Source: Escherichia coli | GTDB lineage: Bacteria; Pseudomonadota; Gammaproteobacteria; Enterobacterales; Enterobacteriaceae | Strand: one strand, 5' to 3' | NCBI RefSeq assembly: GCF_002854065.1 | Contig: NZ_CP024147.1 | Length of the DNA: 64,000 bases | In this document: positions 43,764 through 48,787 of the stretch, one piece after another | Numbering within the stretch: position 1 is the stretch's first letter | How the letters are laid out: each line of letters opens with the position of its first letter | The notes under the pieces: model-generated | Databases searched by the model: none | What the model saw: only the letters and a program-made list of their open reading frames with translations | What the model was told of the DNA's origin: nothing | Translations under genes and position numbers: made by a program

Positions 43764-43778
43764 GGTAATGACTCCAAC

Positions 43779-44282
43779 TTATTGATAGTGTTTTATGTTC
43801 AGATAATGCCCGATGACTTTGTCATGCAGCTCCACCGATTTTGAGAACGACAGCGACTTCCGTCCCAGCCGTGCCAGGTGCTGCCTCAGATTCAGGTTAT
43901 GCCGCTCAATTCGCTGCGTATATCGCTTGCTGATTACGTGCAGCTTTCCCTTCAGGCGGGATTCATACAGCGGCCAGCCATCCGTCATCCATATCACCAC
44001 GTCAAAGGGTGACAGCAGGCTCATAAGACGCCCCAGCGTCGCCATAGTGCGTTCACCGAATACGTGCGCAACAACCGTCTTCCGGAGCCTGTCATACGCG
44101 TAAAACAGCCAGCGCTGGCGCGATTTAGCCCCGACGTATCCCCACTGTTCGTCCATTTCCGCGCAGACGATGACGTCACTGCCCGGCTGTATGCGCGAGG
44201 TTACCGACTGCGGCCTGAGTTTTTTAAATGGCGGAAAATCGTGTTGAGGCCAACGCCCATAATGCGGGCGGTTGCCCGGCAT
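43779..44282 (-). CDS. insB: IS1 InsB (transposase C-terminal part, expressed as InsAB' by -1 frameshift)
   Basis: 167-aa ORF matching IS1 InsB (…[21 protein letters not shown]…). Confidence 0.85.
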
Positions 44283-44476
44283 CCAACGCCATTCATGGCC
44301 ATATCAATGATTTTCTGGTGCGTACCGGGTTGAGAAGCGGTGTAAGTGAACTGCAGTTGCCATGTTTTACGGCAGTGAGAGCAGAGATAGCGCTGATGTC
44401 CGGCAGTGCTTTTGCCGTTACGCACCACCCCGTCAGTAGCTGAACAGGAGGGACAGCTGATAGAAACAGAAGCCAC
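44201..44476 (-). CDS. insA: IS1 InsA (transposition repressor / N-terminal part of transposase)
   Basis: 91-aa ORF ([40 protein letters not shown]…). Confidence 0.85.
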
Positions 44477-44672
44477 TGGAGCACCTCAAAAACACCATCA
44501 TACACTAAATCAGTAAGTTGGCAGCATCACCGACTTTGTAGAGTTTCGGACGAAGGTCCGCAGAATATTCGCAGTATTAAATAAGTGTTCATTAATGCGG
44601 CAAAAACTAATACACCGCATCAATGTAACATCTCTGCGGTGTATGAAGAATAACCAGAATGGTTAATAGGCG

Positions 44673-45782
44673 TTAGACCGCGCGGAAGGAAATCTCGCCT
44701 GGAATGACTTCACCCTGCCAGTAGAGCTGAGCTGCAACGCGGTCAGCCAGCTGGCGGTAGATAGCGGTAAATTCGCTCTCCGGACGGCTGATAACCGTTG
44801 GCGTGCCTTTATCGAGATCCTCACGTAAGGAGATGTGTAACGGCATCTGCCCCAGCAGCTGTGTGTGGTATTTTTCAGCCAGTTTCTCTGCACCACCGGT
44901 ACCGAAAATCGGTTCATGGTGACCACAGTTACTGCAAATATGCACACTCATGTTCTCGACAATACCAAGCACCGGAACCTCGACTTTCTCGAACATCACA
45001 ATGCCTTTTTTCGCATCGATCAACGCGATGTCCTGCGGGGTGGTGACCACGACTGCACCAGTTACTGGAATGTTTTGCGCCAGCGTCAATTGAATGTCAC
45101 CGGTGCCTGGCGGCATATCAAGCACCAGATAGTCGAGATCCGGCCACAAGGTTTCCTGCAACATCTGCATTAACGCCTTGCTCGCCATCGGTCCACGCCA
45201 CACCATCGCATTGTCGTCAGTGACCAGATAACCAATTGAATTGGTTGCCAGGCCATGAGACATAATCGGTGCCATATGGGTACCGTCCGGCGAAGTTGGA
45301 CGCTGATTTTCTGCGCCCAGCATGGTGGGAATTGATGGGCCGTAGATATCGGCGTCCAGAATGCCGACTTTCGCCCCTTCCGCCGCCAGTGCCAGCGCCA
45401 GGTTTACCGCCGTGGAGGATTTACCCACGCCGCCTTTACCGGAACTGACCGCAATGATGTTCTTCACACCATTAATACCCGGCTGATTCTTCACGCGTTT
45501 TAAGGTGGCGATATTGTGCGACAGTTTCCAGTCGATAGCTTTCGCCCCGGTGATACGCAGCAGTTCGGCGCTACATTGCTCTTTTAACTCTTCAAACGCG
45601 CTATGCCAGACGAATGGCATAACCAGTTCCACATGCAACGTGTCGTCCATCCAGGCGACATGGTGCAACGCTTTCAGCGTGGTGAGGTTATGCTTCAGGG
45701 TTGGGTGCTGAAAATTGGCCAGTGTCCCGGCGACCATTGCGCGCAAGGCTTCTGGTGATTTGGCCTGGGATTGTTCGTTCAT
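44673..45782 (-). CDS. mrp: Fe-S cluster carrier ATPase Mrp/ApbC
   Basis: ORF 44673..45812; probable start at the Met at 45782 (MNEQSQAKSPE…); P-loop NTPase of the Mrp/NBP35 family (GKGGVGKSSTAVNLA). Confidence 0.85.
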   Translation of the reverse strand: MNEQSQAKSPEALRAMVAGTLANFQHPTLKHNLTTLKALHHVAWMDDTLHVELVMPFVWHSAFEELKEQCSAELLRITGAKAIDWKLSHNIATLKRVKNQPGINGVKNIIAVSSGKGGVGKSSTAVNLALALAAEGAKVGILDADIYGPSIPTMLGAENQRPTSPDGTHMAPIMSHGLATNSIGYLVTDDNAMVWRGPMASKALMQMLQETLWPDLDYLVLDMPPGTGDIQLTLAQNIPVTGAVVVTTPQDIALIDAKKGIVMFEKVEVPVLGIVENMSVHICSNCGHHEPIFGTGGAEKLAEKYHTQLLGQMPLHISLREDLDKGTPTVISRPESEFTAIYRQLADRVAAQLYWQGEVIPGEISFRAV

Positions 45783-45913
45783 CCCGACTCCTTTTTTGTA
45801 TAGATAAACCATCAGCTGATAGTTTACCTGAAGAATATAGAGAAGTACTTACTTAACATTTTCCCATTTGGTACTATCTAACCCCTTTTCACTATTAAGA
45901 AGTAATGCCTACT

Positions 45914-47947
45914 ATGACTCAAGTCGCGAAGAAAATTCTGGTGACGTGCGCACTGCCGTACGCTAACGGCTCAATCCACCTCGGCCATATGCTGGAGCAC
46001 ATCCAGGCTGATGTCTGGGTCCGTTACCAGCGAATGCGCGGCCACGAGGTCAACTTCATCTGCGCCGACGATGCCCACGGTACACCGATCATGCTGAAAG
46101 CTCAGCAGCTTGGTATCACCCCGGAGCAGATGATTGGCGAAATGAGTCAGGAGCATCAGACTGATTTCGCAGGCTTTAACATCAGCTATGACAACTATCA
46201 CTCGACGCACAGCGAAGAGAACCGCCAGTTGTCAGAACTTATCTACTCTCGCCTGAAAGAGAACGGTTTTATTAAAAACCGCACCATCTCTCAGCTGTAC
46301 GATCCGGAAAAAGGCATGTTCCTGCCGGACCGTTTTGTGAAAGGCACCTGCCCGAAATGTAAATCCCCGGATCAATACGGCGATAACTGCGAAGTCTGCG
46401 GCGCGACCTACAGCCCGACTGAATTGATCGAGCCGAAATCGGTGGTTTCTGGCGCTACGCCGGTAATGCGTGATTCTGAACACTTCTTCTTTGATCTGCC
46501 CTCTTTCAGCGAAATGTTGCAGGCATGGACCCGCAGCGGTGCGTTGCAGGAGCAGGTGGCAAATAAAATGCAGGAGTGGTTTGAATCCGGCCTGCAACAG
46601 TGGGATATCTCCCGCGACGCGCCATACTTTGGTTTTGAAATTCCGAACGCGCCGGGCAAATATTTCTACGTCTGGCTGGACGCACCGATTGGCTACATGG
46701 GTTCTTTCAAGAATCTGTGCGACAAGCGCGGCGACAGCGTAAGCTTCGATGAATACTGGAAGAAAGACTCCACCGCCGAGCTGTACCACTTCATCGGTAA
46801 AGATATTGTTTACTTCCACAGCCTGTTCTGGCCTGCCATGCTGGAAGGCAGCAACTTCCGCAAGCCGACCAACCTGTTTGTTCATGGCTATGTGACGGTG
46901 AACGGCGCAAAGATGTCCAAGTCTCGCGGCACCTTTATTAAAGCCAGCACCTGGCTGAATCATTTTGACGCTGACAGCCTGCGTTACTACTACACTGCGA
47001 AACTCTCTTCGCGCATTGATGATATCGATCTCAACCTGGAGGATTTCGTTCAGCGTGTGAATGCCGATATCGTGAACAAAGTGGTTAACCTGGCCTCTCG
47101 TAATGCGGGCTTTATCAACAAGCGTTTTGACGGCGTGCTGGCAAGCGAACTGGCTGACCCGCAGTTGTACAAAACCTTCACTGATGCCGCTGAAGTGATT
47201 GGTGAAGCGTGGGAAAGCCGCGAATTTGGTAAAGCAGTGCGCGAAATCATGGCGCTGGCTGATCTGGCTAACCGCTATGTCGACGAGCAGGCTCCGTGGG
47301 TGGTGGCAAAACAGGAAGGCCGCGATGCCGACCTGCAGGCAATTTGCTCAATGGGCATAAACCTGTTCCGCGTGCTGATGACTTACCTGAAGCCGGTACT
47401 GCCGAAACTGACCGAGCGCGCAGAAGCATTCCTCAATACAGAACTGACCTGGGATGGTATCCAGCAACCGCTGCTGGGCCACAAAGTGAATCCGTTCAAA
47501 GCGCTGTATAACCGCATCGATATGAAGCAGGTTGAAGCACTGGTGGAAGCATCTAAAGAAGAAGTGAAAGCAGCTGCCGCGCCAGTTACTGGCCCACTGG
47601 CAGATGATCCGATTCAGGAAACCATCACCTTTGACGACTTCGCAAAAGTTGACCTGCGCGTGGCGCTGATCGAAAACGCAGAGTTTGTTGAAGGTTCTGA
47701 CAAACTGCTGCGCCTGACACTGGATCTCGGCGGTGAAAAACGCAATGTCTTCTCCGGTATTCGTTCTGCCTACCCGGATCCGCAGGCACTGATCGGGCGT
47801 CACACCATTATGGTGGCCAACCTGGCGCCACGTAAAATGCGCTTTGGTATCTCCGAAGGCATGGTAATGGCTGCTGGTCCTGGCGGGAAAGATATCTTCC
47901 TGTTAAGCCCGGATGCTGGTGCTAAACCAGGCCATCAGGTGAAATAA
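45914..47947 (+). CDS. metG: Methionyl-tRNA synthetase
   Basis: ORF 45905..47947; class I aaRS HIGH motif (ANGSIHLGH) and KMSKS; likely start at MTQVAKK (45914); C-terminal tRNA-binding domain present. Confidence 0.9.
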
Positions 47948-47956
47948 TCCCCCTTC

Positions 47957-47986
47957 AAGGCGCTGCATCGACAGCGCCTTTTCTTT
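47957..47986 (+). terminator. Rho-independent terminator after metG
   Basis: aaggcgctg…cagcgcctt stem followed by ttcttt. Confidence 0.5.
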
Positions 47987-48034
47987 ATAAATTCCTAAAG
48001 TTGTTTTCTTGCGATTTTGGGTAATGACTCCAAC

Positions 48035-48538
48035 TTATTGATAGTGTTTTATGTTCAGATAATGCCCGATGACTTTGTCATGCAGCTCCACCGATTTTGA
48101 GAACGACAGCGACTTCCGTCCCAGCCGTGCCAGGTGCTGCCTCAGATTCAGGTTATGCCGCTCAATTCGCTGCGTATATCGCTTGCTGATTACGTGCAGC
48201 TTTCCCTTCAGGCGGGATTCATACAGCGGCCAGCCATCCGTCATCCATATCACCACGTCAAAGGGTGACAGCAGGCTCATAAGACGCCCCAGCGTCGCCA
48301 TAGTGCGTTCACCGAATACGTGCGCAACAACCGTCTTCCGGAGACTGTCATACGCGTAAAACAGCCAGCGCTGGCGCGATTTAGCCCCGACGTATCCCCA
48401 CTGTTCGTCCATTTCCGCGCAGACGATGACGTCACTGCCCGGCTGTATGCGCGAGGTTACCGACTGCGGCCTGAGTTTTTTAAATGGCGGAAAATCGTGT
48501 TGAGGCCAACGCCCATAATGCGGGCGGTTGCCCGGCAT
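48035..48538 (-). CDS. insB: IS1 InsB
   Basis: 167-aa ORF, differs from copy A InsB by one residue (S for R). Confidence 0.85.
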
Positions 48539-48732
48539 CCAACGCCATTCATGGCCATATCAATGATTTTCTGGTGCGTACCGGGTTGAGAAGCGGTGTA
48601 AGTGAACTGCAGTTGCCATGTTTTACGGCAGTGAGAGCAGAGATAGCGCTGATGTCCGGCAGTGCTTTTGCCGTTACGCACCACCCCGTCAGTAGCTGAA
48701 CAGGAGGGACAGCTGATAGAAACAGAAGCCAC
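48457..48732 (-). CDS. insA: IS1 InsA
   Basis: 91-aa ORF identical to copy A InsA. Confidence 0.85.
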
Positions 48733-48787
48733 TGGAGCACCTCAAAAACACCATCATACACTAAATCAGTAAGTTGGCAGCATCACC

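Follow-up and report, generated by a model that had tools for sequence, protein, structure and literature searches.

The window, a 64-kb stretch of Escherichia coli DNA (contig NZ_CP024147.1 of assembly GCF_002854065.1), contains two copies of the insertion sequence (IS) IS1, termed IS1 A and IS1 B here, which lie on either side of a 3,488-bp segment (44532-48019) carrying the genes mrp (also named apbC) and metG (Table 1). Based on a self-comparison of the window, the two copies (768 bp each) were found to be its sole large repeat, to lie in direct orientation and to differ at a single position (C at 44088 versus A at 48344). An earlier note made from the letters of this DNA had described two direct, near-identical IS1 copies enclosing about 3.5 kb with mrp and metG, and its coordinates were correct to the base. 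Each IS1 copy marks a deletion. Structurally, the two events can be told apart, and their outcome is inherited clonally.

On the plus strand, both copies begin with GGTAATGACTCC at the left end and finish with GGCAGCATCACC at the right end. The imperfect terminal inverted repeats (GGTGATGCTGCCAACTTACTGAT / GGTAATGACTCCAACTTATTGAT), together with the length of 768 bp, identified both copies as IS1; the four flanking bases TTTG, which are found beside IS1 A and beside IS1 B, match by chance. Each copy encodes insA (91 amino acid residues) and insB (167 amino acid residues) on the minus strand, and the A6C motif of the insA/insB' -1 frameshift was located at IS1 nucleotide 307 in both. When searched against NCBIfam, InsA (90 bits, profile positions 1-81) and InsB (143.8 bits, profile positions 76-199) matched the model NF033558, "IS1 family transposase". 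The identical copies in the complete genome of strain CUWW06 are named [quoted passage not shown] by the NCBI Prokaryotic Genome Annotation Pipeline (PGAP). IS1 A and IS1 B are IS1-family elements of the IS1B type.

Simple insertion of IS1 creates a target duplication of 9 bp, occasionally of 8-14 bp. The 9-mers bordering IS1 A are TTAAATTTG and GACTTTGTA, and those bordering IS1 B are GCGATTTTG and CTGCTGACG. By direct comparison, no flank pair agreed and no 9-bp duplication was found at either copy, and the crosswise comparisons (left of A with right of B, right of A with left of B), where a duplication would be a sign of inversion or of transposition of the whole unit, gave no match. Re-inspection was thus in agreement with the earlier statement that neither copy has a 9-bp target-site duplication and that all four flanking 9-mers differ. 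In strain WCHEC035148, where IS1 has undergone a simple insertion into yehB, the same script recovered the 9-bp duplication TGCGACTTC as a positive control; the missing duplications at IS1 A and IS1 B are therefore not a failure of the method. Because a target duplication marks a simple insertion event and not the element, the assignment of both copies to IS1 stands without it.

Two deletions relative to K-12 MG1655

To the left of IS1 A, the window follows the K-12 MG1655 chromosome as far as position 2187528, within yehA (2187380-2188414). The 3,488-bp segment between the copies corresponds, ungapped and with 97.9% identity, to K-12 2192918-2196405; it spans from the yehE-mrp spacer to the metG-yehF spacer and is native and syntenic. 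To the right of IS1 B, the K-12 sequence restarts at about 2210606, within yehQ (2209100-2210944). All three blocks keep the order and orientation of K-12 and are colinear but not contiguous. In place of IS1 A, K-12 has about 5,389 bp (most of yehA, followed by yehB, C, D and E), and in place of IS1 B it has about 14,200 bp (yehF, yehH, yehI, yehK, yehL, yehM, yehP and most of yehQ). The two flanks of each copy are therefore at non-adjacent K-12 positions (2187528 and 2192918 for A; 2196405 and about 2210606 for B), as in a deletion scar, and the duplications are missing because of the deletions, the flanks not being contiguous in K-12. The comparison with the K-12 gene order that the earlier note had proposed bore out both of the deletions that it suspected. 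The lost 14-kb cluster (positions 13475-27945 of the K-12 locus; yehF, I, L, M, P and Q) encodes WGR, DUF4132, MoxR-type AAA+, DUF5682, VWA and SWIM proteins; no anti-phage defence match was found for YehF, I, L, M, P and Q by PADLOC.

The four junctions, of which J1 and J2 are the sides of IS1 A and J3 and J4 the sides of IS1 B, were searched with 300-bp probes in 5,426 complete E. coli genomes. Single-piece matches were found only in CUWW06 (wastewater, Thailand) and 100416 (human stool, Gambia), each with all four junctions as single uninterrupted matches, and, at J3, in GDSC2227PM; no IS1-free genome with the same gene adjacency was found. Over 20.5 kb, CUWW06 and 100416 differ from the window by 7 and 10 single-nucleotide polymorphisms (SNPs), respectively, so that the window comes from a third strain of the same lineage. 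Since the junctions are common to the three strains, both deletions predate their split. Moreover, the identical junctions in two independently assembled genomes show that the structure is inherited within the lineage and did not arise through misassembly. CUWW06 and 100416 have at least 35-40 IS1 places per chromosome, compared with a median of 10-12 per genome.

The sister strains also date the mismatch between the two copies. In the window, IS1 B carries a private G>T change at IS1 nucleotide 444 (window 48344), which is non-synonymous (R65S in InsB), whereas CUWW06 and 100416 have G at this site; IS1 B of 100416 has its own private C>T change at IS1 nucleotide 301. In CUWW06, IS1 A and IS1 B are identical, so that the difference seen in the window is a later private mutation of copy B. 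Together with the differing private changes, this identity indicates that both copies were identical when the structure arose.

Table 1. Features within and around the IS1 pair, in window coordinates.
Feature	Position	Strand	Basis or detail
rcnB, last intact gene on the left	43196..43534	+	PGAP annotation of the identical CUWW06 locus; colinear with K-12
yehA remnant, 3' end of fimbrial adhesin gene (~149 bp), cut by IS1 A	43616..43763	-	K-12 mapping; PGAP "fimbrial protein, incomplete" in CUWW06 and 100416
IS1 copy A, IS1B, 768 bp	43764..44531	-	insA 44201-44476, insB 43779-44282; on ~5.39 kb deletion (yehA' through yehE)
Native spacer, 141 bp past mrp stop codon, part of K-12 yehE-mrp intergenic region	44532..44672	.	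Colinear with K-12 from 2192918
mrp / apbC, iron-sulfur cluster carrier ATPase, 369 aa, intact	44673..45782	-	NCBIfam NF008669, 777.8 bits, full length; WP_001005448.1 in CUWW06
Divergent mrp/metG intergenic region, putative promoter region, retained	45783..45913	.	Ungapped K-12 alignment of the 3,488-bp block
metG, methionine-tRNA ligase, 677 aa, intact	45914..47947	+	NCBIfam NF001100, 1018.9 bits, full length; WP_001295427.1 in CUWW06
metG intrinsic terminator hairpin, 9-bp stem then T run, intact	47957..47980	+	Terminator scan
IS1 copy B, IS1B, 768 bp	48020..48787	-	insA 48457-48732, insB 48035-48538; on ~14.2 kb deletion (yehF through yehQ')
yehQ remnant, 3' part of SWIM zinc-finger gene without N-terminus	48788..49283	+	K-12 mapping; PGAP "SWIM zinc finger family protein, incomplete" in 100416
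yehR, first intact gene on the right	49408..49869	+	Annotation of the identical CUWW06 locus

IS1 B starts 39 bp past the stem of the metG terminator and 72 bp past the metG stop codon. The metG gene is essential in E. coli; mrp (apbC) is not known as an essential gene of E. coli K-12.

IS1 and IS5 in related strains and loci

The yeh clusters are near-core: among the 5,426 complete genomes, 117 (2.2%) gave no match to yehB and 95 (1.8%) no match to yehI. Both are nonetheless often hit by IS1: genomes with an IS1 end no more than a few hundred bp away numbered 89 for J1, 76 for J2 and 13 for J3, counts that are confounded by clonal inheritance. When nine other loci were examined, one simple IS1 insertion with its duplication and at least seven other IS1-associated deletions were observed in yehA-E and yehF-R. 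Those deletions that lie on the metG side start at K-12 2196405, 2196553, 2196960, 2197049 and 2197505 and extend 8-14.5 kb to the right; in the loci examined, all of them start to the right of the metG terminator and none enters metG. As for orientation, every IS1 seen in yehA-E (K-12 2187380-2192796) of the examined loci is oriented as in the window, and on the metG side, in yehF-Q (K-12 2196474-2210944), this is so for 4/6 elements, a sample too small, and too much confounded by shared ancestry, for a bias to be claimed.

GDSC2227PM carries an IS1 at the identical base and in the same orientation as at window 48019/48020 (9150/9151 of its own locus; J3 is K-12 2196405). The far end of its deletion is at K-12 2204603, within yehL, as opposed to about 2210606 in the window. 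J3, which lies 39 bp beyond the stem of the metG terminator, may be a preferred target that IS1 hits with single-base precision. IS1 prefers AT-rich targets, and the G+C content at J1-J3 (36-41%, compared with 50% for the locus) fits this preference. A consensus site for integration host factor (IHF), which was sought as an explanation for the repeated use of J3, was not found within 100 bp of any junction. A literature search on IS1 at metG or yeh returned incidental co-mentions only and no paper on the subject.

A second element of the window, an IS5 of 1195 bp (30302-31496), lies between gatA and gatZ; its flanks occupy 29509-30301 and the sequence from 31497 onward. In CUWW06, it is a simple insertion with its TTAA duplication kept, and the ancestral simple insertion of this IS5 is thus represented within the lineage. 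In the window, the right flank is shifted 191 bp into gatZ, to a CTAA site, and the 3' end of gatZ is truncated; in 100416, the left flank is shifted about 790 bp outward, to a TTAG site. Among the three sister strains, a single IS5 insertion thus gave rise to two adjacent deletions that are independent of each other. The target consensus of IS5 is YTAR, which both new ends (CTAA and TTAG) fit, and this points to transposase action.

Further signs of change were noted elsewhere in this lineage. In the PGAP annotation of CUWW06, the yegE/dgcE region (window ∼5607-7736) is split into two pseudogene fragments, MASE1 and PAS, and mdtD (window ∼17904-19319) has an internal stop; the window positions of yegE and mdtD are those of the CUWW06 annotation shifted by +191. 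A ParD/ParE toxin-antitoxin pair is annotated between yegP and yegQ in CUWW06. Combined with the number of IS elements, these annotations are a hint that genes of the lineage are still decaying.

Origin of the two scars

The structure is most probably (probability about 0.85) the product of two separate IS1B elements, each the scar of an IS1-associated deletion and each limited on its inner side by the essential metG unit. In an IS1-rich lineage, one IS1 would have inserted into AT-rich sequence close behind the 3' end of mrp, and a second one a short way past the metG terminator. Each IS1 would then have removed the DNA on its outer side, likeliest through intramolecular replicative transposition ("adjacent deletion"), in which the IS remains joined to its original flank by one end, its other end is transferred to a distant target, and the intervening DNA leaves as a circle that is unable to replicate. 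By this process, most of yehA through yehE on one side, and yehF through most of yehQ on the other, would have been lost and the 9-bp duplications erased. The anchors would lie on the mrp-metG side (J2 and J3) with the loss directed outward, and the pair would today be a passive 768-bp direct repeat. The matching orientation of IS1 A and IS1 B is best treated as a coincidence.

On the mrp side, the inner limit of the deletion is 141 bp beyond the gene, and on the metG side it is 72 bp beyond; selection would have set both limits there because further loss would remove an essential gene. Inward deletions would destroy metG and be lethal, so that survival would be confined to deletions that run outward from the borders of the mrp-metG transcription units. 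Adjacent deletion is favoured as the route because it needs fewer events, because J3 recurs with another far end, and because the IS5 element shows the process at work in this lineage.

Several observations weigh against this account. The element at J3 of GDSC2227PM is an IS1A (8 differences), and its mrp-metG haplotype differs from that of the window at 66/3,488 sites; the J3 match may thus come from a separate insertion at a favoured site instead of a common anchor. The shared J3 could reflect either a preferred target that was hit twice or an old anchor that was later overwritten by recombination. The example of adjacent deletion within the lineage itself is IS5, not IS1. Furthermore, no ancestral simple IS1 insertion with a 9-bp duplication was found at J1-J4 in the 5,426 complete genomes, so that we infer the order of events, the route and the anchor junctions. 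Lastly, intramolecular transposition cannot be separated, from sequence alone, from homologous recombination between earlier IS1 copies.

Such recombination is the alternative that survives best. Each deletion would have arisen by RecA-dependent homologous recombination between two earlier direct IS1 copies (at J1 and J2, and at J3 and J4), leaving a hybrid IS1 with mismatched flanks. This would replace the deletion step only, and its likelihood is a share of the figure given above, not an addition to it; we consider it possible, although doubtful. It predicts exactly the structure that was observed, namely an IS1 without a duplication whose flanks come from two distant native sites. Several IS1 copies of the same orientation are present in the yeh regions of other strains (strain a7 has two in yehA-yehB), and missing duplications have been ascribed to adjacent deletions or, frequently, to recombination between IS copies (PMC11708052). 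However, this route requires four insertions and two recombinations, as against two insertions and two transposase-driven deletions, and none of the genomes in the collection carries, at J1-J4, an IS1 whose duplication is intact. In addition, the far ends of the IS5 deletions lie at target-consensus sites, which indicates that transposase-driven deletion has been active in the lineage.

A single event could also be imagined, in which an IS1 next to metG transposed replicatively across mrp-metG and the excised IS1-mrp-metG circle re-integrated via IS1 homology. Direct orientation and originally identical copies, as they still are in CUWW06, would both follow from it. However, it explains neither deletion: the outer flanks are 5.4 kb or 14.2 kb off, so that two further deletions would be needed, and identity of the copies is equally expected from a common IS1B pool in an IS1-rich genome. 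We therefore regard a single event as very improbable.

The earlier note had also remarked that the structure mimics a composite transposon. The layout does so, as two direct 768-bp IS1 copies bracket a short (3.5 kb) cargo, as in Tn9, and an apbC-metG pair does exist on some 200 plasmids of this species with sizes of about 110 kb. Nevertheless, it is hardly credible that IS1-mrp-metG-IS1 is a Tn9-type composite transposon that moved in, is mobile or was amplified. Unlike the cargo of such a unit, mrp and metG are native housekeeping genes at their native site, with rcnB and yehR on either side in K-12 order and orientation, and the outer flanks (TTAAATTTG and CTGCTGACG) have no common 9-bp duplication. 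The mrp-metG segment has a chromosomal copy number of one (one place in CUWW06), and no second copy of the unit was found. The plasmid apbC-metG is only about 92% identical, comprises the two genes only and has no adjoining IS1 in plasmid pECOH89, and the plasmid-database matches of at least 96% identity are Mb-sized or several-hundred-kb records that look chromosomal. The resemblance to Tn9 is thus one of layout only. Finally, although IS copies are commonly misassembled in short-read assemblies, false adjacencies from a collapsed or mis-joined IS1 repeat are a negligible explanation, given that the window, CUWW06 and 100416 each span all four junctions uninterrupted, with private SNPs that include changes inside IS1 B.

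Plasmid copies, comparable systems and meaning

In principle, recombination between IS1 A and IS1 B could either delete metG, with lethal effect, or amplify mrp-metG in tandem. In the complete-genome set, the mrp-metG segment was found at 5427 chromosomal places in 5425 genomes and is essentially single-copy; no amplification or second chromosomal copy was detected in this set, and no IS1-flanked metG was found on plasmids. It is improbable that mrp-metG is an amplifiable or translocatable unit that is actually used, either for copy-number variation of MetRS or in IS1-mediated plasmid capture; a milder form of this proposal is an orientation-specific, base-precise IS1 hot spot 72 bp past the metG stop codon. 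If it were true, IS1-mediated capture would be a route by which the housekeeping genes apbC-metG reach mobile elements such as the ∼110-kb plasmids of the pECOH89 type.

About 200 E. coli plasmids, roughly 110 kb in size and classed as "non-mobilizable", carry the apbC-metG pair; within the complete genomes, the number of plasmid places is 221. In pECOH89 (NC_023916.1), positions 7994-11285 match window positions 44680-47948 with about 92% identity over apbC-metG only, and the neighbours of the pair are hypothetical genes, an S24 peptidase gene and a ClpX-type zinc finger gene. This plasmid is presumably an SSU5-like phage-plasmid, a classification for which the papers searched offered no confirmation. 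No paper linking SSU5-type phage-plasmids with metG was found in the literature search, and pECOH89 is not mentioned in PMC9600943.

IS-driven genome reduction is known in Shigella and in host-restricted E. coli. The lineage described here shares with it a high number of IS1 copies, the loss of cryptic fimbrial and accessory clusters, and pseudogenes nearby; it differs in being a modest case as regards IS1 number, and it is not known to be host-restricted or invasive. The classical work on adjacent deletions mediated by IS1 is that of Turlan and Chandler (1995; cited in PMC12428005). In E. coli, deletions of 11-66 kb immediately adjacent to IS1 have been measured at 2-99 per million colony-forming units (PMC10569738). 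Such deletions, which removed nfsB (Wan et al., 2023; PMC10569738), resemble the scars of the window in having IS1 at the junction, no duplication, a one-sided loss of kb to tens of kb of dispensable DNA, and an IS1-rich host. In contrast, the present structure is old, fixed and carried by a natural lineage; two events flank an essential gene pair, and the ancestral insertions were not recovered. In the Lenski long-term lines (IS150) and in E. coli C (IS5) (PMC11708052), an IS without a duplication likewise lies at the junction, and deletions proceed stepwise from a fixed IS anchor, a pattern that is shown here by the IS5 of the window among the three sister strains. The differences are that the main element here is IS1 and that the strains are natural isolates, not experimental populations.

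Both the element and the mechanism are already known from textbooks, and two public genomes already contain this very locus in annotated form. Beyond careful annotation, the significance is therefore small, since these are ordinary IS1 deletion scars in an IS1-rich lineage. The four junctions can be used as a lineage marker, and many E. coli lineages have accumulated IS1 insertions in the yeh regions. Two near-core clusters have been removed up to the edges of the mrp-metG transcription units, and this state persists in strains on two continents. The locus is thus a clean natural example of an essential gene that sets the inner limit of IS-mediated deletions.

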